Source of the DNA: an uncultured Thermoplasmata archaeon
GTDB lineage: Archaea; Thermoplasmatota; Thermoplasmata; Lutacidiplasmatales; UBA184
DNA length: 64,000 bases
NCBI GenBank assembly: GCA_963842165.1
Contig: CAWJFK010000025.1
Coordinates: 125,681 to 189,680, forward strand
Direction of reading: 5' to 3'
The notes under the pieces are model-generated. The model saw only the letters and a list, made by a program, of their open reading frames with translations. It was not told the origin of the DNA and made no database searches. The translations under genes were made by a program, and so were the position numbers. Shown one piece after another: positions 1 to 64,000 of this stretch. Numbering within the stretch: position 1 is the stretch's first letter; every line of letters starts with the position of its first letter.

Positions 1-41
1 AGACTGGGGACCTCTATACCTCGGACCAGAACCAGGGAACC

Positions 42-1269
42 TTGATGCTCATCTCCCCTACGGGCGGCACCGGCCCCACCCACTATCCGGTGACCTTCCA
101 CGAAACGGGCCTACCGGCGGGCACTTCCTGGAGCGTCACCTTCAACGGGACCTTAGGGAGCTCGACCACCGCCTCGATCGCCTACTCTGTCCTGAACGGC
201 GGTTATTCGTTCACCACCGGCACGGTGGCCGGGTACACCGCCAACGTGACCGGCGGCCCCGTCACCGTCAACGGAGCGCCCGTCGATGTGGAGATTGGGT
301 TCACCTCGACCGGGACTCCGACCTACGCCGTGACCTTCGACGAAACGGGTCTGCCGTCTCCCCCCTCGTGGACCGTGACCCTCGAAGGTTCACCCCAGAG
401 CGCGACGACGACCATGATCCAGTTCGTGGAGGTCGACGGCTCGTACTCCTTCTCCGTGGGGGCCGTGACCGGCTACACGGCGGCTCCGTCGTCCGGAACG
501 GTGGTCGTGAGCGGGGGGCCGCTGACCCGGGACATCGTGTTCACTCCGACCACGGCCCCGCCCCCCACCTACCCCATCACGTTCACCGAGACCGGGCTCG
601 ATTCCGGGACCAGCTGGTCCGTGACCCTCGCCGGAACGTTGCTCTCCTCGAGCACCTCGACCATCGCGACCACCGCTGCCAACGGAAGCTACCCCTACAC
701 GGTCTCTTCCGTGACGGGGTACACCGCGAGCCCGGCCTCCGGTACCGTGACCATCACCGGGGCGGGCCAGACCGTCGCCATCACGTTCACGGCCACACCG
801 ACCGGCACGTCGCCGCCTCCGTCACCGTCCGGCTTCTTGGGATTGCCGGGTTCGGACGGGTACATCCTGTTGGGCATCCTCGTCGCCGCGATCGCCGCGA
901 TCCTCTTCCTGGTCCTGGCGCGGCGGCCGAACTATCCGATCGTCTTCACGGAGACCGGTCTGCCCGGCGGGTACGCGCTGGTCCGTGCGGCTGAAGGACG
1001 TCACCGAGTTCTCGGAGACGGAGACGATCCGATTCAGTCGGCCGAGCGGCACCTACGAGTATGAAGTGGCTCCCTCGGCGGGCCATTCCCCCACCCCGGC
1101 GACCGGCTATGCGGTCGTCGAGCGGGAGCGTCGAGACATCCCGTCCGGTTCGGCCCCCCCTAAACGGACCCGCGCATCGGACCGGGTGGTCGAGCGGCCG
1201 GCCCCTGGATTCTGTTCAAGTCCGTCCATTCGGTGGAGAAGCCAAGGCCAGCAGGCCCGAGTCCTCTGA
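42..1269 (+). CDS. Surface repeat protein with about four tandem ~95-aa repeats (P-T-Y-P-V-T-F-x-E-T-G-L-P...S-W-S-V-T), Thr/Ser-rich, hydrophobic anchor segment; reading continues in another frame after ~1000
   Basis: ORF 42..1064 shows tandem repeats and the TM helix ILLGILVAAIAAILFLVLARR. A further repeat (NYPIVFTETGLPGG, then WSVRLKDVTEFSETE in frame of ORF 985..1269) follows the anchor, indicating a frameshift or collapsed repeat. Confidence 0.5.
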
Positions 1270-1985
1270 TCAAGGAAGCGCCAACGCGTTCGTGGTCCCG
1301 GTGTAGCTCTGCATGCCTTGGGCGACGAATTGGAGCCCTAGTCCCGTAGGATTCTGGGTGCCCATATCGATCACAATGGAATCGGTAGTGTTGAGAGGGG
1401 TGCCGTCCGTGACACCGCTCCCGAGGGTCCAGTCCGACGACATTCCCATCGAACCCCCGACGGCGGCATACTGGGCCACCACCGTGCCGTTCGAGTTCAG
1501 GATGGAGAATCCGTGGCCGGCGGTCGCCACGTCGATCGCCCCTCGCTCGGTCTGGACGAAGAACCACGCGGATCCAACGGTGATCGTAGACTCGATGATG
1601 CTCAGCCCGTAATAGAAGTCGGCGGGGCCCTGACAGCCCGTGGAGAGGAAAGTGCTGCCGACGGGGCATTGTCCGACCGTCGGAACGCCAGGAAGGAAAG
1701 CGGTACGAGGGGGGTGTTGCCGGCACAGTGGCAGAAACCCCGGCCGATCAGGCCCCCGTACTCCAGCCCTACCAGCCCTACTACGAGTGCCGCGGCTGAG
1801 ACGACCACCACGACCGCTACGACGATGGCAACGTCCGGACTCGGCCGTGAAGGCGCGGGTGGCCAGAGCGAGCGCGGCCCATAGGTCGGAGACCCTGGCC
1901 CGGCGACCCGAGCCCCGCACGCCGGACAGAAGGGGTAACCGGGGGTGAGGGGTCGGCCGCATTGCGCGCAGGGCGAGGATGCCAT
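1270..1985 (-). CDS. Zinc-ribbon / TM / pilin-like extracellular-domain protein (frameshifted near 1610-1640)
   Basis: N-terminus is MASSPCAQCGRPL...CPACG (C-x2-C...C-x2-C), followed by a Pro-rich linker and the TM helix VAIVVAVVVVVSAAALVVGLVGL. The C-terminal domain (ORF 1270..1962) is homologous to the pilin C-domain at 41503..42140 (IVIDMG...TG.GL...LALP terminus). Confidence 0.5.
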
Positions 1986-2193
1986 CCGCGTCTCCCCCGC
2001 CTCTACCACACGACCCAGGTCGTGTTAAACTGGGCGTGCACGTGCCATGGCCCGGGGCGGGACGTACTCCCGACCGTGGGGCCAGGTCCGGTACGCTTTC
2101 CCGATGGACTCTCCCTCCCCAATGAGGCCGTCAAGCCCGGACCACCCAAGCCGTGATATAGCGCGCTCCGGTGGCACGACGGTCCGTCTCGAA

Positions 2194-3341
2194 ATGCCCG
2201 ATTTCTCGCTGTCCGCGGAGCAGGAAAGTCTCCGGGATATGGCCCGGAAGTTCGCACGGACGGAGATGGTGCCGCACGCGGCCGAGTGCGACCGGACCCC
2301 TCGGTTCCCGGAGGAGATCTACCGCAAGGCGTACGACCTCGGCCTCATGAACCTCAACGTACCCGTCGAGTACGGGGGCAGCGGCCTCGGCCTCTTCGAC
2401 CAGTGCCTCATCGTCGAGGAGCTCGCCCACGCCTGCGGCGGCATGACGACCTCCGTGATCGCGAACTGCCTCGCCCTGGAACCGATCCTCCTCGGCGGTA
2501 CGCCCGAGCAGAAGGAACGCTTCCTCACGCCGTTCTGCTCCGAGTACCACTTTGCGTCCTTCGCCCTCACCGAGCCGTCGGGGGCAGCGACGCCGGGGGG
2601 CTCTTGACCCGGGCCCGCCGGGACGGCGACCATTACGTCCTCGACGGCGAGAAGTGCTTCATCACGAACGCTCCGCACGCTTCCCTGTTCACGGTCTTCG
2701 CGACGGTCGACCCGAGCTTGCGGACGAAGGGCATCACGGCGTTCGTCGTCCCTCGCTCCGCCGTTGGCCTCAGCACCGGCAAGGACGAGGAGAAGATGGG
2801 CCATCGGGCCTCGTCGACCAGCACGGTGCGGTTCGACGGCGTGAAAGTCCCGGTCGAAGACCGTCTCGGCGAGGAGGGCGGGGGCTTCTCGATCGCGATG
2901 CGGACGCTCGACCAGACCCGGACCCCGATCGGTGCGCTGGCCACCGGAATCGCCCAGGCCGCCCTCGACCACGCCGCCGCCTACTCCCTCAAGCGTCAAT
3001 CGTTCGGCAAGCCGATCAGTCAGCACCAGGCGATCCAGATCAAACTCGCCAACATGGCCCAAGCCGTCCACGCCGCGCGCCTCCTGACCTGGCAGGCGGC
3101 CTGGACGATCGACCGCGGAGCCAAAGGAACGCTCGAGTCGTCGATCGCGAAGTGCTTCGCTTCCGATGCCGCGCTGCACGTGGCGGACGAGGCGATCCAG
3201 ACCTTCGGCGGGTACGGCTACATGAAGGAGTATCCGGTCGAGAAGCTCCTCCGGGACGCGAAGCTCACCCAGATCTACGAGGGAGCGAACGAGATCCAAC
3301 GGACGGTCATCGCCCGCGAACTGCTCCGTGAGTACGCCTGA
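2194..3341 (+). CDS. Acyl-CoA dehydrogenase (frameshift near 2600)
   Basis: N-terminal part in ORF 2047..2607 ([20 protein letters not shown]...); the C-terminal ACAD domain in ORF 2286..3341 ends ...[22 protein letters not shown]. Confidence 0.8.
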
Positions 3342-3355
3342 GCCCGGAGGGCGGC

Positions 3356-4136
3356 GTGGAGATCGTCGTCTGCATCAAGCCGGTCCCTGAGGCGGAGACG
3401 CGGCTGCGCGTGGCGCCCGGCGGCCAAACCCTCGATGCGGAGGGCGTGAAGTTCGTCCTGGCCGGGTACGACGAGTCGGCCCTTGAGCAGGCGCTCCTAC
3501 TCAAGGAATCGGTGCCCGGTTCGAAGGTGCATGCCGTTTCGTACGGGCCGACGCCACGGACCGAGGAGGTGCTCCGCGCCGCGATCGCACTAGGCGCCGA
3601 CCTCGCCACCTGGGTCGAGGCGCCGTCGGGCACGGCGGCCGACCCGATCCTCGCCGCGCGATCGCTGGCGGCGGCCATCGCCGCCGTTCCGCACGACCTG
3701 GTCCTCTGCGGCAAGCAGGCCGGCGACGATGAGGCGGGCCTCGTTCCGTCGGCGCTGGGGGAGCTCCTCGGAGTCCCCGACTTCGGCTCGGTCGTGGACC
3801 TTCGGTGGGACCCGTCCGCCTCCCGACTGAAGTTCCTCCGCTCCACGGACCAGGGCGGGGAGCGTTGGGAGGCCCCCACCCCGTGCGTCATCGGGCTCCA
3901 GCAGGCGTGGAACGACCCGCGCACGGCGAAACTGCCGAGCATCCTCAAATCGCGCAAGGCGCCGATCGCGAAGCGTCCTCGGGAGGCGTCCGACCCGGGG
4001 CCGCAGAGCGTGCCGACGGCGTTCGAGCTACCCCCACCGCGGACGGGGGCCCGGATGATCGAGGTACAAGACTCCCGAGGAAGCGGCCCAGAAGCTGGTC
4101 CGCATCCTCCGGGAGGAGGCCAAGGTGTTCCCGTGA
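3356..4136 (+). CDS. etfB: Electron transfer flavoprotein beta subunit (frameshift near 4060)
   Basis: [19 protein letters not shown]... is a typical EtfB N-terminus. The true C-terminus ...[21 protein letters not shown] plus TGA at 4134..4136 is in the adjacent frame. Confidence 0.8.
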
Positions 4137-5118
4137 CCGGCCCCGTTCTGGTCGTCGGCGAGGTCCAGAACGCCCGCCTGAGCGGTCCGACGCTCGAGGC
4201 GGTGTCGGTGGCTCAGTCGCTCGGCGGCGGGTCCGATGGGATCGTCGGTTTCGCAGGGGGCAGTGCGGCCGGCAGCGCCGCCGCCGAGTTCGGCCGCGTG
4301 GGAGTAGGACGGGTCGCGCTGGCGCGAGACCCGGCGCTCGACTCGCGCCGGTCGCCGCTTTCGCCGCGGTGGTCGCCGCGGCAGCGAACGCGACCGGGGC
4401 CGACACGGTCCTCGTCGGCGGCACGACGTTCGGCCGGGACCTCGTGGGACGGCTCGCCATCCGTTGGGAGGCCGCGGTCGCCACGGGGGTGACGGAGGTT
4501 CGTCGCGAGGGGGGTGCGATCCTCGTGCGGCGACCGATCTTCGGCGGACGCGCGACCGAAACCCGGCGCTTGGAAGCTCCTCGGGTGGCGCTGGCGATCC
4601 GACCTCACGCCTTCGCCTCGCCCCCCCCTGCGGTCGTCTCACCGTCGATCGAGGAAGTCCCGATGGTGCCTCTCCCACCCGAGCTGCTCGCCCCCACGCG
4701 GACCGCCATCGAGACGGCGGCCCAGGGGGCCGGCCCGTCCCTGGGAGACGCCTCCATCGTCGTCTCCGGCGGACGGGGGGTCCGCACCGCCGAGAACTTC
4801 CCGATCGTCGAGGAGCTCGCGGCGTCCCTCGGGGCCGCGGTCGGCGCCTCGCGTGCTGTGACCGACGCGGGGTGGCGCCCGGCCTCGTTCCAGGTCGGCC
4901 AGACCGGACGCTCGGTCTCACCTCAACTCTACATCGCGGTCGGGATCTCGGGCGCGATCCAGCATCTCGTCGGGATGCTGAGCTCCCGAGTGATCGTCGC
5001 GATCAATTCCGACCCGAGCGCGCCAATCTTCCGGGTCGCCGACTTCGGGATCGTGGGCGACCTGTTCCAGGTCGTCCCGGCGCTGACCACCGAGATCCGC
5101 CGTGTCCGCGCCCCGTAG
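4133..5118 (+). CDS. etfA: Electron transfer flavoprotein alpha subunit (frameshift near 4330-4400)
   Basis: GTG at 4133 overlaps the etfB stop; [28 protein letters not shown]... The C-terminal FAD-binding part in ORF 3805..5118 reads ...[15 protein letters not shown]... Confidence 0.8.
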
Positions 5119-5655: not shown

Positions 5656-6953
5656 TCAAAGGTCGCGGGCCAGGCTCGCCCCGTCCTTGAGCAAGGTCGT
5701 GATGGGGATTCCCGCCGCCTTGCGGACGGATAGGAGGATCCGCTTCATCGACCGCTTGCGCGCCCCATCGTCCGTCATCAGCGCGTGGAAAAGCTCCATC
5801 GCAAACGCAGGATAGACGGTGTAGATCCGGGGATTCCACTTCACCTCGTCGATCCGCTCGAAGTCCCGGAAGTCCGGGAGGACTCCGGTGGTTTCAAGCC
5901 GCCGGTCGTACTCGGCCAGTCGGGTGGCGGACACGTCGCCGGCCTTCTTCGCGGCCAGCGCCGTCTCGGCCGCCTCCAACCCGGAGCGGATGGCGTAGTT
6001 CATGCCCTGGATCACGAGGCCGTTCGAAAAGACGAATCCCGCGGCGTCCCCCACGACCATCCAGCCATCGCCGTGGAAGGCGACGGCCGGCTGGCCCAAC
6101 CGGAAGCGATCAGCTTCGCCCCATATTCGACCAGCTCCGCCCCTTTGAGGCGCGCGGCGATCGTCGGGTGCAGGCGGAACTGTTCGATCAGCTCTTGAGA
6201 GTACACGCCGCGGCCGAACAGCGACTGAATGTTGAGAATGAGACCGACCGAGATCGTGTCGGTGTTCGTGTAGAGGAAGCCCCCGCCCATGACCCCCGGT
6301 GTGAACTGCCCGGTGACCCATTCCTCCGCGTGGCCTTCGCCGGGTCCGAGATGAAATCGGTCCTCGATCTGCCCGGAGTCGAGGCGATAGACCTCCTTGA
6401 TCCCGAGCTCCGTCGCTTCGCCGCTCGAGCCGGCCGGCCGAATGGGGGTTCCCAACGCGAGCCGGGAGTTGGTGCCGTCGGCGAGGATCGTCACGGGCGC
6501 AGTCATCGTCTCCCCGCCTTGTACGACGCCGTGGACGCGCATCCCTTCCCAGTTCAACCGGTCCACCGGGACGCTGGTCACGACGGTCGCCCCCGCCTCC
6601 TCCGCCTTCTTGGCCAACCACGCATCGGTGCGGGCGCGAAGCACGGAGTGAGCGACGTACGGCTCCTTCCGCCAGGCCCCGTCGTCGAACTCAAACGAGA
6701 GGGCGCTCTCGGCGGTGAGGAAGCCGAAGCGCTTGCGGATGATGTGGCGCTCGACCGGCATCTCGTGCCACCATCCCGGCAGGATCCGGTCGAGGTCGTG
6801 ACCCCACAGAATGCCCCCGGAGAGATTCTTTGCGCCGACCTCAGCGCCCCGCTCTAACAGCAGCACGTTCGCCCCGCCTTGGGCGAGACGGATGGCGGCC
6901 GAGGATCCGGCCATCCCGGCGCCGACGACGATCACGTCGAAGTCGTCCGACAT
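5656..6953 (-). CDS. fixC: FixC-like FAD-dependent oxidoreductase (ETF:quinone oxidoreductase family); frameshift near 6110
   Basis: MSDDFDVIVVGAGMAGSSAAIRLAQGGANVLLLERG... is a dinucleotide-binding N-terminus (ORF 6012..6953); the C-terminal part is in ORF 5656..6621. Located next to etfBA. Confidence 0.7.
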
Positions 6954-7805: not shown

Positions 7806-8657
7806 ATGGGTGTCACGGACTGCCACGTACACATCAACCCGATCTGGGAGATGCGACCCGACGCGGCCGAGCTCCTCGGGTACGCCGGCGCCGGTCCGAC
7901 GCACTACCTCACTGACCCTCCGGCTTTCCTCGAGTACCTGACCGCTTCGGGGGTGGAGCGGGCCGTCCTCATCAACTACGTCGCACCGGACGTCATCGGA
8001 TACACGGAGAAAGCGAACGACTTCGTCAGCGAGTACGTCCGCGCGGACCCCCAGCGTTTGGTAGCGGTCGGGGGCCTGCGACCGGACCACCCCGACCCGG
8101 GCGGAGAGGTCGCCCGGCTCGGCCGAGCAACTCCACCTCCGGGCGATCAAGCTCCATCCGCCGCACCAAGGGTTCCGCCCGAATGCGTACACCGACGGGG
8201 ACCTGCCCGGACTCCGCGAGCTCTACGCGGCCTGCGCGCGCTACGAGCTCCCCGTCATCTTCCACACCGGCACGAGCGTCTTCCCCGGGCCCGCAACCGG
8301 TTCGCCGACCCGATGATGATCGAGGACGTGGCCCTCGACTTCCCGGACCTCACGATCGTCCTCGCGCACGGGGGCCGCCCGATCTGGATGGAGACCGCCG
8401 TCTTCCTCGCCCGCCGGTTCCCGAACGTCTGGCTCGAGGTGAGTGGGGTGCCCCCGAGCCGGCTGCTCGACTACTTCCCGACCCTTCCGCGCCTGTCCGA
8501 GAAGGTCCTGTTCGGCACCGATTGGCCCGGCCCCGGCGTCAAGGACATTCGCACGAACCTCGACGCCTTCCGCTCGCTCCCGATCCCGGCCGACGCCCAA
8601 CGACGGATCCTCGAAGAGAATCCACTCAAGGTTTTCCCTCGCCGGGGGCCGACCTGA
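7806..8657 (+). CDS. Amidohydrolase-2 family metal-dependent hydrolase (frameshifted)
   Basis: MGVTDCHVHINPIW... carries the HxH motif; the C-terminal part in ORF 8183..8686 frame reads ...PVIFHTGTSVFPG...TIVLAHGGRPIWMET.... Confidence 0.7.
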   Translation: MGVTDCHVHINPIWEMRPDAAELLGYAGAGPTHYLTDPPAFLEYLTASGVERAVLINYVAPDVIGYTEKANDFVSEYVRADPQRLVAVGGLRPDHPDPGGEVARLGRATPPPGDQAPSAAPRVPPECVHRRGPARTPRALRGLRALRAPRHLPHRHERLPRARNRFADPMMIEDVALDFPDLTIVLAHGGRPIWMETAVFLARRFPNVWLEVSGVPPSRLLDYFPTLPRLSEKVLFGTDWPGPGVKDIRTNLDAFRSLPIPADAQRRILEENPLKVFPRRGPT

Positions 8658-13521: not shown

Positions 13522-14308
13522 ATGCCGGAAAGTGGGCTGGTCGGACGGAAGGGCGAGGAGGACGGCGTCGAGGTCCTGGTCTTGAAAAACCCCCCCGTGA
13601 ACGCGCTCAGCACCGCGCTCCTCGCGGACCTCGACCGTCACGTCTCCGCGATCGAGGCCGACCCCAAGATCCGGGCGGTCATCCTGACGGGCGACGGCCA
13701 GTACTTCAGCGCGGGGGCCGATCTCAAGGAGCTCGCCACCTTCGACCTCGCGAACGCGCCCGACGTCGTTCGCCGAGGCCATGCGCTGTTCGCCCGGATC
13801 GCCGGCCTTCGGCCGCCCGTTCGTCGCAGCGATCAACGGCCTCGCGCTCGGGGGCGGCCTCGAGCTCGCCCTCTCGGCCGACCTGCGCGTCGCGGGGGAA
13901 TCGGCCAAGTTGGGCGCGCCCGAGGTCAGTTATGGCCTCATGCCGGCCTACGGTGGGACGCAGCGACTCCCCCGGGTGGTGGGTCTTCCCAAAGCCAAGG
14001 AACTGATCTTCACCGGCGCGATGATCTCCGCGGCCGAGGCGCTGCGGATCGGTCTCGTCAACAAGACCGTCCCTTCGGGCCAGGAGCTGCGGGCGGCCCG
14101 CGACCTCGCTCACACGATCGCGCAGAAGGCCCCAAAGGCGGTGCAGGCCGCGAAGCAGGCGATCAACGAGGGGATGGCCAAACCCCTCGCCGAGGGGATC
14201 GTGGTCGAGACGAACCTCTTCGCTTCGCAGGTCCTCACCTCGTCCGACCTGGGGGAAGGGCTCCTCGCCTTCGTCGAGCGCCGCCCGCCCAAGTTCCTCG
14301 GAGCCTAG
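13522..14308 (+). CDS. Enoyl-CoA hydratase/isomerase (crotonase), frameshift near 13790
   Basis: MPESGLVGRKGEEDGVEVLVLKNPPVNALS...; the second half in ORF 13781..14308 reads FVAAINGLALGGGLELALSADLRVAGESAKLGAPEVSYGLMPAYGGTQRLPR. Confidence 0.8.
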
Positions 14309-14310: not shown

Positions 14311-15505
14311 ATGGCGATCGAATTCTCCTTCACGCCGGACCAGGAGGCGTTCCGAGAAGCAGCCCGCGACTTCCTCCAGAAGGAGGTCGCCCCGGTCGTG
14401 GCCGAGATGGACGAGAAGGAGGAGTTCCCGGCCGCCTCGGTCCGCCGGATGCAGGAGGAGGGGTACTTCGGCATCCCGATCCCCGAGACCTACGGTGGGC
14501 TCGGGCTCGGCAAGGTCGGCTACTGCCTGTTCCTCGAAGAGCTCGGCAAGATCGACGCCGTCGCACGGCGTGATCGTCGGCGCCCACACGTCGCTCGGGA
14601 TGACCCCGCTCCTCTCCTACGGGACCGAGGAGCAGAAGCGACGGTGGCTCACTCCCGCGGCCAAGGGAGACCGGCTCCTTGCGTTCAGCCTGACCGAACC
14701 GGGATCCGGAAGTGATTCCGGGGCCGTGCGGACGGTCGCGGACAAGAAGGGCGACGGGTGGGTCCTCACGGGCAACAAGATCTACGTCTCGAACGGACGC
14801 GAAGCGGGGACCGTCGTTCTCCTGGCCGGCAACGACGTCAAGCTCGGCCCCAACGGTGGGGTCACCGCCTTCCTGGTCGATACCGACAGCGCCGGGTTCA
14901 AGGTCGGCCGGTGCGAGAAGAAGATGGGCCTGCACGGCACGTCGACCGCGGAGCTCATCCTCGACCACGTCGAGCTCGGTCCCGAGTGCGTCCTCGGGGA
15001 AGTGGGCAAGGGGTTCCACGTGGCGATGACCGCGCTCGACGTGGGCCGGGTCTCCCTCGGCGCGGCGTCCCTCGGCGGCATCGAGACGGCCCTCGCCGGC
15101 TCCCTCCAGTTCGCTCAGAACCGGACGCAATTCGGCCTGCCGATCAGCGAGTTCCAGGCGATCCAGTTCAAGCTCGCCGATATGGCGATGCGCGCCCAGG
15201 CGCTCCGGCTGCTCGTCTACCACGCCGCGGCCCACCAGGACCGAATGGGTTCGGACCCGAAGGCGTGGAGCCGGCTCGAGCGGGCCGAGAAGACGCGGGA
15301 GTCCTCGATCGTGAAGTGCCTCGCCTCCGAATGGGCGAGCGAGGTCATCGATGAGGCGCTCCAGATCCACGGTGGTCTCGGGTACATTCGAGGCACTCCG
15401 ATCGAGCGCGCTTACCGGGACGCGCGGATCAGCGAGATCTTCGAAGGGACGAACGAGATCCAGCGGCTCGTGATCTCGCGGGACCTCATCGCCCGGGGCT
15501 GGTAG
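14311..15505 (+). CDS. Acyl-CoA dehydrogenase (frameshift near 14560)
   Basis: MAIEFSFTPDQEAFREAARDFLQKEVAP...; C-terminal part in ORF 14495..15505 ends ...[22 protein letters not shown]. Confidence 0.8.
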
Positions 15506-17221: not shown

Positions 17222-17651
17222 CTCAGGCAGACCTTCCCGCTTCCGGGGCCTCGGACTCCTCGGGCGAACTGCACCCCGGGCTTGTAGCTGGACACGAAGC
17301 GGACGCGTTCGCCGATCGAGAGCCCGTCCACGGTCTGACCGAGGGCATCCAGCCGGTGATCCGACCGCCGCCGTCGAGCTCGACCACGACGTAGGCGTAC
17401 GGGCGCGTCGTTCAGGAACTCGTCCCCGGGCACGGTAAGCAGGGTGAACGCGACGACCTTGCCCGCGGGGGCGAGCGCATGCTCCTCCAATCCGATGCGG
17501 CCGCATCGGGGGCAGGCGAGCCCCCACGTCGCCGTGATCAGCCGGCGATCTGGGCATCGAAATCCGCGGAGCGGACCCCCTTGCTCGTAGGAGCGGACCC
17601 ACTCCTCGATCGAGTGGGCCGCGGTGGGCAGAACTCGGACGACATGGTCGA
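17182..17651 (-). CDS. DUF35 OB-fold/zinc-ribbon protein (thiolase-associated)
   Basis: ...[55 protein letters not shown]... Located downstream of the thiolase as in archaeal thiolase-DUF35 pairs. Confidence 0.55.
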
Positions 17652-18840: not shown

Positions 18841-18864
18841 AGCAGGCGGAAAGGACCCTTAACC

Positions 18865-19161
18865 TTACGCCGGCGTCCCGGTCAGCGACTCGGATCGCGG
18901 GCTCCCTCGATCGCGGGGAGGAGTCGAGCGAAGGCTCGGTCGGCCACGGCCGGTTCGTCGGTCTTGAACAGGATCCGGCCGTTCTGGCTGATCGTCACTT
19001 CGGGGTCGGTCCCGGCGATCAGCATCACGCGAGCGTCCATTACCCGGCCACCCCTCTTTCTCGAGGGCGGCCCGCACCTGGCGGAGGTCGAGCCGGACGG
19101 GCGGGTCGGGAACGGCCTCGAAGCCGCCGCCGCTGGAACACAACTGGAGCCTTCGATACAT
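18865..19161 (-). CDS. Small hypothetical protein (frameshifted)
   Basis: MYRRLQLCSSGGGFEAV... continues in the adjacent frame as ...VMDARVMLIAGTDPEVTISQNGRILFKTDEPAVADRAFARLLPAIEG; no family recognised. Confidence 0.3.
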   Translation of the reverse strand: MYRRLQLCSSGGGFEAVPDPPVRLDLRQVRAALEKEGWPGNGRSRDADRRDRPRSDDQPERPDPVQDRRTGRGRPSLRSTPPRDRGSPRSESLTGTPA

Positions 19162-24876: not shown

Positions 24877-24905
24877 TATCGGGGACCCCTGTCCCGAACT
24901 CCGTG

Positions 24906-26063: not shown

Positions 26064-26104
26064 AGGTGCTGACGGGTCGGACGGGCGTGGCGACTGCCGA
26101 AGCT

Positions 26105-48576: not shown

Positions 48577-48626
48577 GTCCGAAGCGAACCTTTAGGTGCG
48601 CCGGGTCGAATCCGGGGACGGTCGCA

Positions 48627-49014
48627 TGAAGTTGCTTCACACTTCGATCACCGTGCGCTCGATGGACGAGAGCCTCCGCTTCTACACCGAGGTCCTCGGC
48701 CTCGAGTGAACCGGCGTCGGACGATCCCGGAGAACAAGGCCGAGATCGCCTTCGTGAAGGACCGGGTCTCGGGGGGCCGGATCGAGCTCACGCACTGGGA
48801 CGGGAAGGACACGTTCGAAGCGGGGGAGCAGCTCGACCACCTCGCGTTCGAGGTCGAGGACCTCGACCGATTCCTGATGCGCGTCCGCACGAAGGGGATC
48901 CGGATCGCGAAGGAACCCTACCAGATCTCCGGTGGGTCGACCCGTCTGGCCTTCATCCTCGACCCGAACGACGTCTGGATCGAGCTGATCGAACGGGCGA
49001 AGGCGCCCGGCTGA
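48627..49014 (+). CDS. VOC/glyoxalase family protein (frameshift near 48705)
   Basis: MKLLHTSITVRSMDESLRFYTEVLGLE then ...AFVKDRVSGGRIELTHWDGKDTFEAGEQLDHLAFEVEDLDRFL.... Confidence 0.6.
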
Positions 49015-49024: not shown

Positions 49025-50278
49025 GTGCTCCCCCCAGCAGCTCCGTCGGCGCCGGACCAGCGACGGCGGCCGCTGCTCGCGGTCCTGGTCGCGACGTTCT
49101 TCGTTCGACTCGGCTTCGGTCTGACGCTCGCGGTCTTTGCGAGCTACATCCTCGGACGGTCGACCGGGCTCACCGGAAGCAACGTGGGCGCCGCCGGTCT
49201 CATCAGCGCGATGGCACCGGTGGGGGAGTTCTCGACTGTCCTCCTGTCCGGGGCGCTCGCGGACCGGTACGGTCGCTGGCCGGTACTCTTCTCGGGGATG
49301 GCGGCGGCAGCGGTCCTTTTCGCCGTGGCCGCGACGACCCGCGACCGGTACACGCTCGGGGCGATCAACCTCGTCTTCGGGGTCGCGAGCGGGGCGATCC
49401 TGGCCGCCAGCCTCGCCGTGGTCGGCGACCGGGCGGACGAGGCGCCACGGGGGTACGAGATGGGACGTTTCGACGCGATGAACCTGTTCGGTTGGGTCGG
49501 CGGGTTCGCGCTCGGGTTCGGTCTGCTCGGAGCCCTGCCCAACGATCGTCTGGACCTGGTCTTCGCGGGCGGGGCCGTGGCCCTGGCTGGGGGCCTCGGA
49601 GTGACGGCGTGGCTCTTGCGCGGCGCGCCGACCTACCACGGTACCCCGAGCGTACTCCTTCCGGAGCGTGATCCAGAACGTCTTCCGTCGGAGCGTCCTC
49701 CTCGTCACGCTCCCTTGGCTCGTCATCTACATGCTGATCGGGACCGCCCTCGTCTTTCTCGGCACGGCCGCGGAAGGGATCGGGATCTCCACCGACGTCG
49801 CTCGCGCTCGTCATTGGAGGGGGAGGAGCGATCCTGGTGGTCACCCAGCCGTACTACGGCGGGCTCGCGGACCGGCTCGGCCGCAACCGACTGCTCACCG
49901 TGGGGGCGACCGGGTTCGTGGGCGCGATGGGGGCCGCGTCCCTCCTGCTCGCCTACGGGGTCACGTACCCGATCCTGGGCGCGCTGGGACTGAGCGTGAT
50001 CCTCGCGCTCGCCTACGGACCGGCGGCGCTGGCGGCTCTGGCGGACCTGACGCTCGAGATCGAGCCGGGCGACGACGATGGCGATCTACTCGCTGACGAT
50101 CTCGCTCGGGATGCTGGTCGGTCTGATCGCATCGACCGGCTTGTACTCCCGCTACGGCAACGAGGGGATCTACGTCTTCTTCGGGCTGGTCTCGGCCGGA
50201 CTCATCCTCCTCACGGTCGCCCGCGTTCGGGAAACGGCGAAGGCCCCGCCGGCGTCGACTACGACTCCGGCTCAATGA
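49025..50278 (+). CDS. MFS transporter (multiple frameshifts)
   Basis: TM-rich pieces in ORFs 49025..49993, 49668..50096, 49837.. and 50078..50278, including ...LSGALADRYGRWPVLF.... Confidence 0.6.
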
Positions 50279-51287: not shown

Positions 51288-52270
51288 ATGAGCGAGCCGA
51301 CGGTACGGACCCCCCTGGGCACCCCCATCGTCGGGGCATCTCCCACGTCCGGCCCACCCCCGCGTTCCACCCCCGGGCAGCGCTCTCCAAGCTCGGCCTC
51401 TCCCCGGGCAAACGGACCCGCCTCAAGCGCCTACTCTACGACTACGGGCCCGGCGGCGGCACGCTGCTGGTGCTCCCCATCGACCAGGGACTCGAGCACG
51501 GCCCGGTCGACTTCTTCGCCAACCCGGCCGCCCTCGACCCCTCCTATCAGTTCCAGCTCGCGAAGGAGGGTCGTTTCAGCGCGATCGCGCTCCACATCGG
51601 CCTCGCGGAGAAGTACTTCCACGAGTACGCGGGCGAGGTCCCGCTCATCCTCAAGCTGAACGGCAAGACCAGCATCCCCTCCGACGCCCAGTCGTTCAGC
51701 TCGCTGACGGGGACCGTCGAGGACGCCGTCCGCCTCGGTGCCGACGCGGTCGGCTACACGGTCTACGTCGGCTCGCCGGCCCAGGACCGGGACTTCCTCC
51801 AGTTCACCCAGGTCCGCGCTGAGGCCGATCGGTTCGGCGTGCCGGTGATCGTCTGGGCGTACCCGCGAGGTGAGGCGGTCGCGAAGAAGGGCGGGAAGGA
51901 GAGCCTCTACGCGATCGACTACGCCGCGCGCGTCGCGCTCGAACTCGGCGCCGACATCGTGAAGATCAACTACCCGGTCCCGTCGGAGAAGGACAAAGAC
52001 AGTCCCCCGCCCTACAACACGCTCCAGCTCTCCCCCTTCGAGATGTTCCGCAAGGTCGTCGAGAGCGCGGGCCGCAGCCTCGTCCTCGTCTCGGGCGGCG
52101 AGAAGGTCGGGGACAGCGAACTCCTGGACAAGGTCCGCTCCTCGATCGACGCCGGGGCGACCGGGATCATCTTCGGCCGGAACCTCTGGCAGCGACCGAA
52201 GGCCGAGGCCCTCCACCTGACCCGGGATTTGCATGCGATCTTCCGAGAGTACGCCGAGCCCCTCGCCTAG
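51288..52270 (+). CDS. fba: Class I fructose-bisphosphate aldolase (archaeal DhnA/FbaB type), N-terminal frameshift
   Basis: ...KRTRLKRLLYDYGPGGGTLLVLPIDQGLEHGP...ILKLNGKTS...IVKINYP... Confidence 0.75.
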
Positions 52271-52805
52271 ACCCGCGATCCGCTCCTCCTCCTCCTCGCC
52301 GGGGAGGATCACCCGAAGGCGTGCACCGGCCGTCGCCTCCTCCACCGGGGACTCGCCCGTCCGGTGCGACGCATCGCGAGCGTGCGTCCACCGCCGATCG
52401 GTACTCGACCCGCATGCGGCCGACCCGTTGTCCGCGGCCGACCGCGCGCTCGCCCGGCGAGGCGGGGTCCTGGCGGTCGACTGTTCGTGGAACCGCCTGG
52501 CGAGCCGCGGGCGGCTGCCCGGGCTCGCGGTCGATGACGGGGGCATTCACCGGCGCTTGCCGATCCTGGTCGCGGGCAACCCCCAGCACTTTGGCGCGGA
52601 TCGCCGAGCTGAACACGGTCGAGGCGCTCGAGCGCGGCGCTGTACGTCCTCGGGCAGCGGACGGAGGCGGCCCGTCTTCTCGAAGGCTTCCGCGGGGGCC
52701 ATGGGTTTCTCACGATCAACCGCGAGCGGCTCGACTTGTACGCGAGCCGTCGCACCCCGAGGCCGTGCGCGATCGCCGAGCGCAAGCTGTACGGTGGCGA
52801 GTAGC
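52233..52805 (+). CDS. tsr3: Tsr3-like 16S rRNA aminocarboxypropyltransferase (DUF367), frameshifted, start unclear
   Basis: ...LLLLLAGEDHPKACTGRRLLHRGLARPV...RRSVLDPHAADPLSAADRALARRGGVLAVDCSWNRLA...RRLPILVAGNPQHFG...LNTVEALAAALYVLGQ...FLTINRERLDLYA.... Confidence 0.6.
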
Positions 52806-54517: not shown

Positions 54518-55217
54518 TCACTCGCGACGGGGGCGCCGGCGCGGGCGCTCGTCCTCGTCCCCGTCGTCTCGGCTCTCCCGCCGACGGAATCCTCCGCCCG
54601 GAGGCCGACTGTACGGGCGCGATCCACCCCGACCGCCGAACTTCCCTCGGGGAGGTCCGCGTTCGAACCGGCGCGCACCGCCACCCCGACCCCCCTCGAA
54701 CTCGCGACGGGGAGGCAGGGTGAACCGATTGCCGCAGGAACCGCATTCGCCCGAGATCGTTCCGTCCGGCGCCGTGGTGAACCGGAGGGGACCTCCGCAC
54801 TCTCGGCAGGGTCGGGCGTTCGACGGACGGGAGCCGGGACCTGAATCGTCAGAACGCTCGGGCCGAGGCGCGCCCCTTCGCGGGAACTCGCGGGGTGCCA
54901 TCCCTGCCGGGTACGTACGAAGAGACCGCTCCGCATCCGGTACAGGTGGCTTCGATCCCGGGGCCACCGGAGGAACGGAACGTCAGCGGAGCGCCGCAGG
55001 CCTGGCAGGGCGGCCCGGCCGCTGCCGGGGCGGCGGTCTTCCAGGATCGAGCCGCGTCGGGACCGCCCGCCGTCCCCGGCTGGTCGGTGCCCGGGCCGGC
55101 CCCCTCCTGCAGAACGGTGAGCTGGTGTCCGCATCCACCGCAGGTGCCGGTCAGCACGGTGGTCGTTCGAGCGTCATATTCCATGGCCGTTCCACAGTCG
55201 GGACAGGTGCGCGTCAT
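54518..55217 (-). CDS. Triple zinc-ribbon repeat protein with Arg/Gly-rich (RGG-like) C-terminal tail, frameshifted
   Basis: MTRTCPDCGTAMEYDARTTTVLTGTCGGCGHQLTV / PCQACGAPLTFRSSGGPGIEATCTGCGAVSSYVP / PCRECGGPLRFTTAPDGTISGECGSCGNRFTLP followed by GGRGGGARRFERGPPRGKFGGRGGSRPYSRPPGGGFRRRE. Confidence 0.55.
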
Positions 55218-57295: not shown

Positions 57296-58120
57296 ATGGC
57301 ACTGATCCGCGTGGAGAACGTGGGCAAGAGCTTCGCGTCCCGCCACGGCACGATGTCGATCATGGAGGGCATCACGTTCGACGTGAAGGACGCGGATTTC
57401 CTCGCGATCGTCGGTCCCTCCGGCTGCGGCAAGTCGACGCTGCTCCGCCTCATCCAGGGACTGGACCACCCCACGTCAGGGCCAGATCTACTTCCGCGGA
57501 CCAGCCCGTCGACCGCGTGTGCCACGAGATGGCGATGGTGTTCCAGAACTTCGCGCTCCTGCCGTGGCTGACCGTCTCCCAGAACGTCACGTTCGGGCTG
57601 GAGGCGCTCGGCTGGGCGCCGGACCGGATCCGGGCCCAGTCGGAGCGCTACATCTCCGTCACCGGTCTCGAGGGGTTCGAAGAGGCCTATCCGCGGGAGC
57701 TCTCGGGCGGGATGCGGCAGCGAGTCGGGCTCGCCCGGGCGCTCGCCGTGGAGCCGGCGGTCCTGCTCATGGACGAGCCATTCAGCGCGCTCGACCCCCT
57801 GACCGCGGAGAGCCTTCGCGAGGAGGTCCTCCAACTCTGGAGGGACCCGGGGCTTCCGCCGGAGGCCGTCGTGCTCGTCACCCACAACATCGAAGAAGCG
57901 ATCCAGCTCGCCGACCGGATCGTCTGTCATGGCGCATGCGCCCCTCCCACGTCTTGGAGCAGGTCGAAGTTGACCTCCCCCGGCCGCGCGACCGGAAGTC
58001 GAGCGCGTTCTACGACCTCACCGACCGCGTCTACTCGCTCATCACGGAAAGCGGGGTCCCCCGCCCCGCCCGGGCCGCCGCCCCCCCGGTGGCCCCGCCG
58101 TCTTCACAACCCTTATAGGG
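57296..58120 (+). CDS. ABC transporter ATP-binding protein (NitT/TauT family), frameshifted
   Basis: ...LAIVGPSGCGKSTLLRL... Walker A; LSGGMRQRVGLARAL signature; LLMDEPFSALD Walker B. Confidence 0.8.
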
Positions 58121-58928: not shown

Positions 58929-59876
58929 ATGATGCCGCGCTCCCTTCGCGAATCCCTCCGGGACCACCCCCTGTTCTTCGCCCCGGTGCTGCCCTCCCTG
59001 CGGAGCCCCGCTCACCGGATCGCCGAGCGGGTCGACGAAACGGCTCGACTGCTCCTGAAGGCGCCTCGGGTCGATGCGGTGTACATCCCCGAGCTGGTGG
59101 AGGAGAACCACGAAGGCCGCCCCCGGTACCGTTCCTACGACCCCGGAGAGTACGTGGTCCACGTGACCAGCCGCACGGGCCACCCCGGGATCGTGACGAA
59201 GGTCGTCGCGCACGTCGAGAGCCCTTCGGCGCTGAGGGACTGGGCGGAGCGCAGTGTCCGGAGGGGAGTGCAGAACATCGTACTCGTGGGGGGATCGAGC
59301 GACCGGATACCGTATCCCGAACCTCCGGTCGAGGAGGCCGACCGGATCGTCGTCCCGATCCTCGCGGCGCAGGGAGGGGTCGTCGGCAACATCACGATTC
59401 CCCACCGAGCCGAGGAGGCCACCCGCATGCTTCGGAAGACGCGGGCCGGGGTCGTCTTCTTCACGAGCCAACTGTTGTTCGAGGCCCAGGGGATCATTGA
59501 CGCGATCACGGGGTATGGCCGACTGTGCGCGGCGGCCGGGATCACCCCCGCGACCGTCGTCCTCAGTTTCGCCCCCTTGGGCGACGAGGACGACATCGAG
59601 TTCGTGCGGTGGCTCGGAGCCCACCTGCCCGACGACGTCGAGCAGGCGCTCCTTCAAGACGAACAAGCGCTCTCGCGACGCACCGTGGAGCTCGCCCTGA
59701 GCGTGTGGACCGAGGTCGTGGGAGCCACGGCCGGGGCCGGGGTCCCCCTCGGGGTCAGCGTCGAGCAAGTGTCGACCCGGCACTTCGTCAGCGCGCGGGA
59801 CTTGCTGATCGCGTTCAGCGGGCTTCTACCAGAGCGGCGACGGTCGTCCGTCTCCGCGGGGCCGGAGGTCAGGTGA
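58929..59876 (+). CDS. metF: Methylenetetrahydrofolate reductase-like (MetF family) protein
   Basis: Intact ORF; ...VDAVYIPELVEE...VLVGGSSDRIP...FFTSQLLFEAQGIIDA... fits the MTHFR fold. Confidence 0.55.
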   Translation: MMPRSLRESLRDHPLFFAPVLPSLRSPAHRIAERVDETARLLLKAPRVDAVYIPELVEENHEGRPRYRSYDPGEYVVHVTSRTGHPGIVTKVVAHVESPSALRDWAERSVRRGVQNIVLVGGSSDRIPYPEPPVEEADRIVVPILAAQGGVVGNITIPHRAEEATRMLRKTRAGVVFFTSQLLFEAQGIIDAITGYGRLCAAAGITPATVVLSFAPLGDEDDIEFVRWLGAHLPDDVEQALLQDEQALSRRTVELALSVWTEVVGATAGAGVPLGVSVEQVSTRHFVSARDLLIAFSGLLPERRRSSVSAGPEVR

Positions 59877-60851
59877 CGGCCGAATCCCGACCGGTCTACG
59901 CCAGCCTCACCTCCCCCTTCCCTCGACCGGAGCGGTTGGTCGCGGCCACGCGCGACCTCGACCGGGGACGGACGACCCCGGAGCTCGCCGAGAAGGCGTT
60001 CGTCGAGGCGGAGACCGAGCTCCTCGCCCTCGAGGAACGCCTTTTCTCCAATGTGACCGCCGGCTATCTCCGTTGGAACGATCTCTTCCGCCCATTCGCC
60101 GAGACCTGGGGCGGTTTCACCGTCGGCCCGCTGACGCGCTGGTTGGAGACCAATACGTTCTTCCGGCAACCCATCCTCTCCGGTCCGCCGCACCGGTCGC
60201 CGGGCGCGATCGCCGCCCGCCTCCCGCCTCCGCTCGCGGCCCGGGCGGCGTCCGCGCGGGTGTTCCTGCCCGGCCCCTACACGCTCACGAAGGTTATCGA
60301 AAATCGTTCGGACGCGTCGGAGGTTGAGGTCCTGCTCACCCTTGGCCGCCTGCTCGGTGAGGAGGTCCAGGAGCTGAGCTCGCACGGGTTCGGTGTGTTC
60401 CAGTTCAGCGACCCGATGCTGGTGACAGACCCTCCCGAAAGTTCGCTCGCCGACGGGGTGGTCGCCGCGTATGGGTCGATCGTCGAAGCCCGCCCGCGCG
60501 ACGACCGTGGTCTGGACGTTCGGCGGCGGGGCCGGTCCCGCCCTCCCGCTGCTCGACCGGCTGCCGGTGTCGGTCGTTGGGATCGACCTGACCGAGACCG
60601 AGCCGGAAGCGCTCCGGCCGGGACCGGAACGTCTCGGGCTCGGCCTCGGGATCATCGACCCTCGCACAACGTTGCCGGAGACCCTGGCCGACTCGGTCGG
60701 GGTCGTCCGCGAGGCCCTTCGGCGCGGCCTCGTCGAGTGTTTGGCTCGGCCCGGGCGCTCCGCTCGACCTCCTTCCGGCGCGACCGGCCGAGCAAAAGCT
60801 CCTGCGGCTCTCCGACGTCCGGCACGCCCTGCTTCGGGAGGGATGGGATTG
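59873..60851 (+). CDS. Cobalamin-independent methionine synthase N-terminal-domain-like protein (frameshifted)
   Basis: GTG start overlapping the metF stop; ...LFSNVTAGYLRWNDLFRPFAE...PGPYTLTKVIENRSDASEVEVLLTLGRLLGEEVQELSSHGFGVFQFSDPML...; the end ...LLRLSDVRHALLREGWD lies in an alternate frame. Confidence 0.6.
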
Positions 60852-62008
60852 AGCGCGCCCCTGTTCCCGACCCAAGAGATCGGCAGCCTCCAGAAGCCAG
60901 TCGCTCGAGGCCCTCCATGAGTGGGAAGAGCGCGTTCACTTCCTCTCTCGACTCGCGCACATTCCCGAGGAGGTGCTCCGACACCCCGACGTGGCGACGC
61001 TTCAGAACCTCCGGGCCGCGTTCGCGATCGCGTTCCTCGAATCCGCGGGTCTCGACCGAGTGTACGACGGGGAAGCCCGCCGGGTCGAGATGTACCGGTA
61101 CCGCGGTTCGCCAGATGACCGGCTTCCAGTTCCAGGGCCATGTCCGCTCGTGGGACTCGAAGTCCTACCGCAAGGGGACGGTCGTCAGCCGCGTCGACCT
61201 GATCGCCCCGTACCATCTCGAAGAGTTCGACTTCGTGCGCGAGCACGCCCGCGCCGCGGTCAAGCTACCGATCACCGGCCCCTACACCCTGGCCGACTGG
61301 AGCTACAGACGAGTCTATCTCGCCCGGCAACCCGGTTGGAAGGGGCGCCCTCAGCGGCGGGCCGCGCAGCGCGAGTTCGTGGTCGACCTGGCTCGGCGGG
61401 TGCTGCGGCCCACCCTCCAGGGCCTGATCGCGCACGGCTGCCGGGTGATCCAGATCGACGAGCCGGCGGCCGGCACCCACCCGGACGAGGCGCCCCTCGT
61501 CGTCGAGGGATTCAACGAGGCGACCGAGGGATTGGACGCCGAATTCTCGATGCACATCTGCTACTCCCGCTACCAGGACCTCCTCCCCGCCCTCCTCGAG
61601 GCGAAGGCGTGCCGGCAGTGGGCCTGGGAGTTCGCGAACCGGGACGGAGAGGGTCACGACGCGTACGAGGTGCTGAAGCTCCTGCGGGAGTACTCGGATA
61701 CGCGGTCGATCGGTCTCGGTGTGGTGGACGTGCACCGCAACGGGATCGAGACCCCGGCCGTGGTGTCCGAACGCATCCTGCGCGCGAGCCGGTACCTCGG
61801 AGACCCGGCGCGGATCTGGGTGAATCCGGATTGCGGCCTTCGGACCCGCAGCCTCGAAGTGGCGTACGCCAAGCTTCAGGCGATGGTCGAGGGAGCGAAG
61901 CTCGCCGGACCAGGTCGAGGGACCCGCTCGCTGATACGGGCGGAAGAGAAGGCACTTCGCGCGCCCGCCGCGGAGCCCGGGAGACGCACCACCGGACCGC
62001 GCCCGTGA
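60844..62008 (+). CDS. metE: Cobalamin-independent methionine synthase catalytic (C-terminal, UroD-like) domain protein (frameshifted; 3' end uncertain)
   Basis: MGLSAPLFPTQEIGSLQKP...; ...ITGPYTLADWSY...IQIDEPAAG...EFSMHICYSRYQD... (Zn ligands), ...IWVNPDCGLRTRSLEVAYAKLQAMVEGAK. Confidence 0.7.
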
Positions 62009-62681: not shown

Positions 62682-62798
62682 CTCGCGCGTCCTGGCGGGG
62701 CTGGCCCGATAACGGAGCACGAGCCCATCGCGGGCCCGCGGGACCGAACCCGGATCACAACTCGAACGGTTAATCTCCGCCGACCGGTTGGCGAACTC

Positions 62799-63470
62799 AT
62801 GGAATTTCGGCGCGAGTGCGGTCGTTGCCATGTCTCCCTGACCCCCGAGGAGTCCGCGTACATCTGTGCCCACGACTGCACCTTTTGCCCGACGTGCGTA
62901 CGCCAGCTGAAGTTCGTCTGCCCGAACTGCTCGGGCGAACTGGTTCGCCGACCGCGGCGCCCTGCGCCTCCGATCCCCCCGAGCAGGGCACCTCCGGCCC
63001 CCGACCCGGCCCTCTCCGTGCGCCGGGCTTCGGCCCAGGATCTCGATGCCTTGGTTCCTCTCTTCGACGGGTACCGACGGTTCTACCAGCAGGCCCCGGA
63101 CCTTTCGGGGGCGCGAACCTTCTTGACGGACCGACTCTCCCGCGAGGAGGCCGTGGTCCTGATTGCTGAGGACCGGGGTCGCGCCGTCGGGTTCACGCTC
63201 CTTTACCCTTCGTTCACGTCCGTCTCCCTGGGTCCGATCTTCGTGTTGAACGACCTCTTCGTGGCGCCCGAGGCACGTCGCAAGGGCGTCGGGGCTCGGC
63301 TCCTTGCGGCCGCCCGCACGTTCGGGGTGGAGCGCGGAGCCCACTTCCTCGAGCTCTCGACCGCGGTGGACAATCCGGCCCAGCATCTTTACGAATCCCA
63401 CGGCTGGAATCCGGAACCGGGAGTTTCTCCACTACGAGCTGCCGATCCCTTCCGGCTCTCGACCGGCGTA
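62799..63470 (+). CDS. DUF1272 zinc-finger domain fused to GNAT N-acetyltransferase (frameshift near 63410)
   Basis: MEFRRECGRCHVSLTPEESAYICAHDCTFCPTCVRQLKFVCPNCSGELVRRPRRP, then ...VGFTLLYPSFTSVSLGPIFVLNDLFVAPEARRKGVGARLLAAARTFGVERGAHFLELSTAVDNPAQHLYESHGW; the true end ...NREFLHYELPIPSGSRPA is in the +1 frame. Confidence 0.65.
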
Positions 63471-63610
63471 GCTCGACTTGGCCGAGGGGAGACTCGAGGC
63501 GGTGGGGGGCGGCCCGGTCCGAACCGGCGCCCCGCCTTCGCCGGGGGCCGAGAGACCGAAGAAAGGCGTAGAACCCCGCCCCGAAAGCGAATTTCGGGGG
63601 AGCCGCTTTC

Positions 63611-63620
63611 TTTATATACC
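63611..63620 (+). promoter_or_regulatory. TATA box (TTTATATACC) upstream of second TBP gene
   Basis: Same motif as at 22749; lies about 25-30 bp upstream of ATG 63642. A further AT-rich stretch GTTTTAAATACTATTTATAC follows. Confidence 0.5.
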
Positions 63621-63641
63621 GTTTTAAATACTATTTATACG

Positions 63642-64000
63642 ATGCTGGCGCGAATCCGAATCGAGAACGTAGTGGCGTCGACCTCGCTGGCCGAGACTCT
63701 CGACCTGCAATCGATCGCCCTTACCCTCGACGGGGCCGAGTACGAACCCGAACAGTTCCCGGGCCTGATCTACCGACTGAAGCAGCCCAAGACCGCGATC
63801 CTGTTGTTCCGCTCGGGAAAGGTCGTCTGCACGGGCGGCAAGAGCATGCACGAAGTCGAGGAGTCGATCCACCTCGTGGCCACCCAGATCAAGAAGTCGG
63901 GCGAGAAGATCAACATGCACCCGAAGATCGAGGTGCAGAACATCGTCGCGACGTCCGACCTCGGTTGCGAGATCAACCTCAATTCGATCGCAATCACTCT
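63642..64000 (+). CDS. tbp: TATA-box binding protein paralog (3' truncated by window end)
   Basis: [119 protein letters not shown]. Confidence 0.85.
   Translation, partial: MLARIRIENVVASTSLAETLDLQSIALTLDGAEYEPEQFPGLIYRLKQPKTAILLFRSGKVVCTGGKSMHEVEESIHLVATQIKKSGEKINMHPKIEVQNIVATSDLGCEINLNSIAIT

Follow-up and report, generated by a model that had tools for sequence, protein, structure and literature searches.

Do the broken reading frames of a metagenome-assembled archaeal contig reflect the organism or the way in which its sequence was obtained? The question is raised by a 64,000-nucleotide stretch of GenBank contig CAWJFK010000025.1 (positions 125,681 to 189,680; referred to below as the window), in which small insertions and deletions (indels) shift the frames of otherwise conserved genes. 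An earlier reading made from the letters of the window (the sequence-only reading) had counted about 40 shifted genes among about 65 and had proposed indel-prone sequencing as the cause. We compared the window with intact genes of its relatives, and we conclude, with a probability that we put at about 0.94, that the frameshifts are sequencing or assembly errors and that the genes are intact in nature.

Frame interruptions in the window

The intact genes of relatives were used as queries in a frameshift-aware local protein-to-DNA aligner that was written for the purpose. The final gene set consisted of the relatives' called genes and a curated list, and it contained 54 assessable genes; open reading frames (ORFs) that had been taken greedily from stop to stop in the references were dropped, because DNA of 69% GC gives long off-frame ORFs that merge neighbouring genes. 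At least one shift was needed in 35 of the 54 genes (65%), and 19 (35%) were full length. The alignments spanned 16,898 codons and contained 74 events, a rate of 1.46 per kb (47 of +1, 16 of -1, seven of +2, and four of -2; Table 1), and overlapping references agreed on the same events. A 36th gene, encoding Tsr3 (~52600), is shifted on Pfam evidence alone. If the rate in coding DNA holds throughout, a total of ~90–100 indels is expected in the 64 kb.

The references cover most of the window. L049, L055, and L051 are peat contigs from the Joint Genome Institute (JGI) with 80–84% nucleotide identity, and they span 2.1–20 kb of the window; L058 (91.5% nucleotide identity, 16 intact called genes) spans 14.9–27.9 kb; L059 and L066 span 19–41 kb; L064 and L065 (90% identity) span 34.5–42.1 kb; L060 to L063 span 54–64 kb; and L001, L002, L003, L031, and L046 span 27–51 kb. 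The intervals at 42.1–45 kb and 50.5–54.5 kb have no close reference and were judged by Pfam at most. L064 and L065 (JGI samples 3300082196 and 3300085990) are 99.99% identical across the 7.2 kb that they share, and are one population, ~90% identical to the window at the nucleotide level, that was recovered twice.

When the same aligner was applied between short-read relatives at similar divergence, it gave a rate of 0.08 per kb (nine events over 36,363 codons), and most of these events were in weakly conserved genes. The rate in the window is thus 18-fold higher than that of the control (p = 1.4e-27). The same difference was seen in a four-way nucleotide alignment, in which comparison of the window with any one relative gave 26–30 one-base gaps and comparison of the relatives among themselves gave 4–8; 30 window-specific indels lay at columns where L049, L055, and L051 agree. 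Events that were not multiples of three made up 36 of the 37 indels identified against L058 and 11 of the 12 identified against L065. In blastx searches, single intact ORFs of relatives matched the window in successive reading frames, and the longest open frames of the window gave Pfam matches that were cut off (AMP-binding from profile position 228 and Transketolase_N from position 234).

Every gene that the sequence-only reading had cited as an example is shifted in these alignments: TBP, with both indels in its second repeat; etfB, whose true C terminus (...EEAKVFP) lies in the adjacent frame; etfA, fixC, cca, tkt, both acyl-CoA dehydrogenases, cdc6, and lipA; and the GNAT gene at 63410. 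It had called for four or more shifts in fadD, where we found five, and it had also listed the thiolase, where we found nine; its overall estimate compares with our count for assessable genes, to which Tsr3 is added by Pfam. A public protein database contains a 421-aa fragment of glucose-6-phosphate dehydrogenase (G6PD), P0242, which is 100% identical to the window and is encoded on a 216,460-bp NCBI/ENA contig. This fragment is the ORF that is left after the extra base at 37372, which shows that the indel is already present in the deposited contig.

Constraint, indel spectrum, and alternative explanations

The ratio of nonsynonymous to synonymous divergence (dN/dS; Nei-Gojobori method, against L058 and L064) was 0.134 for genes without a shift and 0.128 for genes with one; in the latter, the codons before the first shift gave 0.167 and those after it gave 0.119. 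Purifying selection downstream of the shifts is therefore the same as elsewhere, indicating that the supposedly untranslatable parts of these genes are constrained like the rest. Mean amino acid identity was 0.890 for shifted genes and 0.887 for unshifted genes. In 51 of the 54 genes, 97% or more of the reference was covered by the repaired protein (two of the exceptions are cut by the ends of the window, and the third reached 96.7%), and nine repaired proteins matched Pfam domains end to end. We found no credible in-frame stop codon in the 16,898 codons, and saw no truncations or deletions of genes. Shifts were distributed uniformly along genes (Kolmogorov-Smirnov p = 0.91), and the 35 genes affected compare with a Poisson expectation of 37.6 at a uniform rate; they include those for Cdc6, TBP, the CCA-adding enzyme, thymidylate kinase, lipoyl synthase, and transketolase. 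Five or more independent short-read assemblies of relatives have the genes intact, and in both samples of the population represented by L064 and L065 the shifts that the window needs are absent from these genes. The indels exist, are private to the contig, and have no evolutionary footprint.

The spectrum was derived from 59 indels that were placed at the nucleotide level, 56 of which are not multiples of three. Insertions of one, two, and three bases numbered 32, six, and one, and the corresponding deletions numbered 16, two, and two. Insertions outnumbered deletions by 38 to 18 (p = 0.01), an overall bias of ~2–3:1, and the inserted single base was G or C in 26 of 32 cases, as in the genome composition. 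Clustering of substitutions within 3 nt of indels was weak and inconsistent (12.6% versus 8.2% for L058, and none for L065). The density of events was uneven (chi-square p = 0.002), with a peak of 4.6 per kb at 16–20 kb and 0.5–0.8 per kb elsewhere. This hot zone comprises fadD, the OB-fold gene, and the thiolase gene, and it contains five of the eight two-base indels (four of them in the thiolase gene). Possible causes of the peak are low local depth and reads from paralogous beta-oxidation genes.

The sequence-only reading had named homopolymer errors as one of two alternatives for the source of the indels. Miscalling of homopolymer lengths in GC-rich DNA, of the 454, Ion Torrent, or Nanopore type, would be consistent with two features of the spectrum. 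Insertions that extend a two-base run to three (nine of 32, or 28%) are about twice as frequent as the 13% expected at random, and CCGG and CCCG contexts are ~3-fold enriched near events (uncorrected p = 0.005 and 0.0008), although under a null model that also inserts a base the enrichment fell to borderline and is a weak tendency only. The window has 883 G/C runs of at least four bases, yet runs of this length contain only one of the 32 single-base insertions and one of the 16 single-base deletions; random placement predicts 6–7%, and so the combined figure of two in 48 is no different from chance. Inserted bases matched neither neighbour in 12 of 32 cases, and most of the eight two-base indels combine different bases (GC, GT, CT). 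The excess is of insertions, but homopolymer miscalls in a consensus are mainly deletions (PMC12007338). We consider this explanation improbable, and the homopolymer part of the earlier proposal found no support. Its other suggestion, long-read sequencing, fared better, as insertion-biased and nearly context-free events point to errors of the long-read type.

If the frameshifts were instead real, arising through recent pseudogenisation on a massive scale (from genome decay or a mutator), the indels would be expected to stand in the deposited sequence, as they do, and it is reads that would exclude this directly, where our case is made by sequence comparison. However, dN/dS shows no change and has its lowest value beyond the first shift, 74 frameshifts are accompanied by none of the other lesions that were looked for (nonsense codons, truncations, and deletions), and core genes are affected at the frequency expected at random. 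The 1.2-kb thiolase gene retains 91% amino acid identity in spite of its nine events, the very close natural populations represented by L058, L064, and L065 are intact, and natural slippage indels concentrate in homopolymers, which these do not. More generally, a spectrum that is independent of homopolymers, follows base composition, is biased toward insertions, and lacks a motif is unlike that of a natural mutational process. Real frameshifts are thus very improbable, and the view of the sequence-only reading that pseudogenisation is implausible is borne out by the unchanged dN/dS, the lack of nonsense codons, and the random targeting of genes. Biological decoding, whether by programmed ribosomal frameshifting, quadruplet decoding, or insertional RNA editing, would account for the existence of the shifts and for nothing else that we observed. 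Both +1/+2 and -1/-2 shifts are present, and one gene has as many as nine sites. Base composition around the insertions equalled background at each position out to 10 nt, no slippery heptamer was found, and shift sites showed no conservation in orthologues, as the relatives' frames run uninterrupted through the same codons. The likelihood of such decoding is close to nil. We know of no pervasive, site-independent frame correction or RNA editing in archaea, and a living archaeal population that carried the indels as fixed differences and expressed dozens of core genes (those for Cdc6, TBP, the CCA-adding enzyme, transketolase, and others) by such means is extremely improbable. It could also be supposed that the errors lie in the reference contigs and not in the window, because L001 and L063 are long-read-style contigs with a few shifts of their own (for example, two that compensate each other in the cation-efflux gene of L001). 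Yet the short-read contigs, eight or more of them from five or more different metagenome samples and studies, agree with one another, and the ORFs of the relatives are full length with complete Pfam domains, whereas the window needs shifts to match Pfam; the chance that the references are at fault is negligible.

Sequencing or assembly error remains as the only reasonable explanation, in view of the selection acting on the shifted genes, the absence of other lesions, the indifference of the indels to gene function, the lack of a recoding signal, and the existence of intact natural populations. The consensus of this metagenome-assembled contig would carry ~1.5 spurious small indels per kb, mostly of 1 nt and some of 2 nt, placed almost at random as regards sequence context, the gene that is hit, and the location inside it. 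They would have arisen from indel-prone single-molecule reads with thin coverage or poor polishing, and variable local read depth or consensus quality could produce the range in density of 0.5–4.6 per kb. Mixed strains or mis-mapped reads from paralogues could aggravate the errors, and either may have done so in the hot zone. Several points weigh against this explanation. The origin in read or consensus errors, like the platform that produced them, is a step that we infer from sequence comparison. The references are relatives at 76–92% identity and not the same strain, and exact positions of indels are certain only where identity is ~90% or higher (14885–27902 and 34480–42140). The peak at 16–20 kb is without an explanation, and the insertion-biased, non-homopolymer spectrum is unlike the consensus errors of Nanopore or HiFi assemblies in the reports cited below.

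Genes and neighbouring features

The window has a GC content of 65–71% over its 64 kb and derives from a soil or peat archaeon of the Thermoplasmata that is Lutacidiplasmatales-like, in agreement with the archaeal TBP and cdc6 genes listed in the sequence-only reading. The closest relatives of its G6PD, whose gene looks intact in the raw sequence (up to 84% amino acid identity), are confined to metagenome-assembled genomes (MAGs) of soil and peat Thermoplasmata, including Candidatus Lutacidiplasma. Lutacidiplasmatales have ~69% GC, and fatty-acid beta-oxidation is a common feature of the group (PMC9287336), a description that the beta-oxidation set in the window (acyl-CoA dehydrogenases, ETF, fixC, enoyl-CoA hydratase, fadD, and thiolase) fits.

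Table 1. Shifted genes of the window, with the position and sign of each event in window coordinates
Gene or product	Coordinates (strand)	Shifts	Basis and repaired product
DUF5074-like large protein, C-terminal part	3..1160 (+)	+1 ~964, -1 ~1140	Alignment to L055, L051 ORFs
Acyl-CoA dehydrogenase 1	2194..3338 (+)	-1 at 2582	Gap vs L049, L055, L051; 382/382 aa, 94% identity; three ACAD Pfam domains matched end to end
etfB	3356..4133 (+)	+1 at 4063, near C terminus	Repaired end ...LREEAKVFP; ETF Pfam match
etfA	4133..5112 (+)	-1 at 4345	Repaired protein matches ETF, ETF_alpha
fixC/ETF-QO-like flavoprotein	5659..6953 (-)	-1 at 6084	Three references agree; Pfam
Amidohydrolase_2	7806..8654 (+)	+1 at 8116, -1 at 8282 (compensating pair)	Repaired protein covers Pfam positions 2-288/289
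Enoyl-CoA hydratase	13522..14302 (+)	+1 at 13816	Alignment; Pfam after repair
Acyl-CoA dehydrogenase 2	14311..15502 (+)	+1 at 14558	Alignment; Pfam after repair
fadD (AMP-binding acyl-CoA ligase)	15489..17221 (-)	+1 at 15600, 16389, 16591, 16843, 16996 (one-base insertions)	Nucleotide alignment to L058; same five events vs L049, L055, L051; 97% identity over 576/576 aa
OB-fold (ChsH2_C-like) protein	17226..17634 (-)	+1 at 17258, -1 at 17335, +1 at 17400	One-base deletion at 17634 (5' edge) in nucleotide alignment, outside counted shifts
Thiolase	17660..18822 (-)	+2 at 17728, +2 at 17762, +1 at 17981, +2 at 18033, +1 at 18119, +2 at 18134, +1 at 18178, +1 at 18558, -1 at 18769	Events identical vs four references
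Hypothetical 92-aa protein	18885..19161 (-)	+1 at 19043	
Alpha/beta hydrolase	20878..21688 (+)	+1 at 21243	
NUDIX hydrolase	21926..22550 (+)	+1 at 22144	
TBP	22789..23334 (+)	+1 at 23092, -1 at 23195 (second repeat; compensating pair, ORF open)	Repaired: 96% identity over 182/182 aa
TatD DNase	23363..24228 (+)	+1 at 23708, -2 at 23820	
Thymidylate kinase	24231..24873 (+)	-1 at 24258, -1 at 24285	
Cdc6/Orc1	24903..26060 (+)	+2 at 25041, +1 at 25978	Repaired: 98% identity, 385/385 aa; homologues uniformly ~385 aa
Lipoyl synthase (lipA)	26066..27002 (+)	+1 at 26117	
CCA-adding enzyme (cca)	27378..28885 (-)	+1 ~27989, +1 ~28287	Alignment to L059; three successive frames vs one 512-aa L003 ORF (blastx)
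Radical SAM protein	28942..29951 (+)	+1 ~28970, +1 at 29745	Up to three references agree
Transketolase (tkt)	30993..33004 (+)	-1 ~31700	
Transaldolase-PGI fusion, 918 aa	33004..35762 (+)	+1 at ~33215, 33609, 33823, 35206, 35715	
Glucose-6-phosphate dehydrogenase	37294..38749 (+)	+1 at 37372, removes first 26 codons	
6-phosphogluconolactonase	38737..39512 (+)	-1 at 38793	
RibD_C-domain reductase	40327..41097 (-)	+1 at 40649, +2 at 41079	
Pilin_N-type protein	41503..42137 (+)	-1 ~41646	
Glyoxalase-family protein	48596..49011 (+)	-1 ~48706	Three references agree; Pfam after repair
MFS transporter	49025..50275 (+)	+1 ~49647, 49795, 50063	L001, L046 agree; Pfam after repair
Tsr3-like ribosome-biogenesis protein	52233..52801 (+)	One shift near 52600	PF04034 2-63 and 74-117 in different frames
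DZR-type zinc-ribbon protein	54521..55217 (-)	+1 ~54910	
ABC transporter permease, 607 aa	55427..57252 (+)	+1 ~55476, +2 at 56048, +1 at 56517, -1 at 57071, -1 at 57079	L060, L063 agree
ABC transporter ATPase	57296..58115 (+)	+1 ~57480, 57499, 57926, 57939	L060, L063 agree
MetE N-terminal-like protein	59873..60843 (+)	Two net -2 events, ~60495 and ~60724	L060, L063 agree
MetE catalytic-domain protein	60849..61931 (+)	+1 ~60901, +1 ~61103, -2 ~61905	Homologues 361-380 aa
DUF1272-GNAT acetyltransferase	62799..63453 (+)	+1 ~63412-63418	L060, L063 agree

Some of these genes have features of their own. Two TBP paralogues lie within the 64 kb (22789–23334 and 63642–64000); both are kept in relatives, and each is ~82% identical at the nucleotide level to the other's orthologues over 338 nt. 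The 3' ends of the radical SAM gene and a convergent methyltransferase gene (29836–30750, minus strand) overlap by ~115 nt, and the same overlap is found in the annotation of L066 (731–1741 on the plus strand and 1620–2537 on the minus strand). The fusion of a DUF1272 zinc ribbon to a GNAT domain is also present in L063, as a 220-aa gene, and L060 and L062 have a 145-aa gene that encodes GNAT only. Shifts in the cation-efflux gene (50272–51144) relative to L001 were excluded from the counts, because the ORF of the window fits Pfam fully and L001 is more likely to be wrong.

A contiguous pentose-phosphate cluster occupies 30993–40295 and is kept in dozens of related MAGs. It comprises the genes for transketolase, the transaldolase-PGI fusion, a HAD phosphatase, 6-phosphogluconate dehydrogenase, G6PD, 6-phosphogluconolactonase, and a ROK kinase, and it is not mentioned in the description of Lutacidiplasmatales (PMC9287336). 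The G6PD is of the classical type, and its best non-archaeal matches, which are 49–54% identical, are from Gemmatimonadota, Acidobacteriota, and Rhodothermales. This suggests that the oxidative pentose phosphate pathway is of bacterial origin, which is unusual for archaea.

Beyond this cluster, a stretch of ~3 kb (42138–45050) has a lower GC content (~65%) and a weak coding signal, and it adjoins a tRNA-Leu gene at 45050–45134. It has no counterpart in L064 and L065, the closest relatives, which have NosD-like, HTH, and methyltransferase genes in its place. It contains a paralogue, 37% identical, of the DUF5074-like gene at 3–1160, and is possibly a variable island next to the tRNA-Leu gene. 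A tRNA-Gln(CUG) gene predicted by ARAGORN at 53961–54033 (minus strand) has mismatches in the T-stem and scores 21 bits against an Rfam tRNA threshold of 29. We considered whether it had been damaged by an indel, and this was ruled out, as it is identical at 72 of 72 positions in the short-read contig L060; it is a natural oddity.

Comparison with known systems

The frame interruptions are not a biological feature but a data-quality artefact, and their value is practical. Inferences that are based on ORFs of the window need frame correction first, and odd gene lengths, overlapping ORFs, missing domains, "novel" small ORFs, and apparent fusions (the open frames of 937 and 1116 aa) are suspect until they are re-derived. 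The advice of the sequence-only reading to treat coordinates and protein predictions as approximate is upheld by the number of shifts and by their interpretation as errors. Public protein databases already hold fragments from the contig, the 421-aa G6PD being an example. The events in Table 1 allow reference-guided repair of 36 genes, and a polisher that corrects homopolymers only would miss most of the errors in the window.

The fragmentation of genes by indels is well documented for assemblies made from long reads (PMC12007338, on Kastor; PMC9262707, which cites Watson and Warr, 2019), and the window is a severe case of it. As in such assemblies, many of its genes, although otherwise well conserved, are split by indels whose length is not a multiple of three, and the errors, at ~0.15% of bases, can be corrected by means of relatives or polishing (proovframe, Kastor). 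By the IDEEL test, 19 full-length genes in 54 (35%) would amount to a very low score. The resemblance does not extend to the spectrum, as Nanopore and HiFi errors are mostly in homopolymers and rich in deletions (PMC9262707; PMC12007338), whereas those of the window are biased toward insertions and independent of homopolymers. An assembly made with old Nanopore chemistry had 23% pseudogenes (PMC12007338), compared with the 65% of genes affected here.

Two of the reference contigs are long-read-style and have shifts of their own. L001 (CAWEHV010000002.1) has three in 4,233 codons, and L063 (ERZ25039509 contig_61878) has four in 2,711 codons. Relative to short-read relatives, occasional frameshifts are seen in the genes of L001 for transketolase, the transaldolase-PGI fusion, and 6-phosphogluconolactonase, and the MetE of L063 is divided into pieces of 81 and 273 aa; the rates in both contigs are 5–10 times below that of the window.

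Among natural systems, the accumulation of pseudogenes during genome reduction in recently host-restricted lineages likewise leaves many genes interrupted by frameshifts. In that process, however, there are also nonsense mutations, deletions, a raised dN/dS, and sparing of essential genes, and none of these is seen in the window. Raw single-molecule reads of the continuous long read (CLR) type have errors that are placed stochastically, with more insertions than deletions and a weak dependence on context. The spectrum of the window resembles that of such reads as they are generally known, and as its rate of ~0.15–0.45% is far below their raw error, the indels would represent the residual error left after a low-depth consensus.

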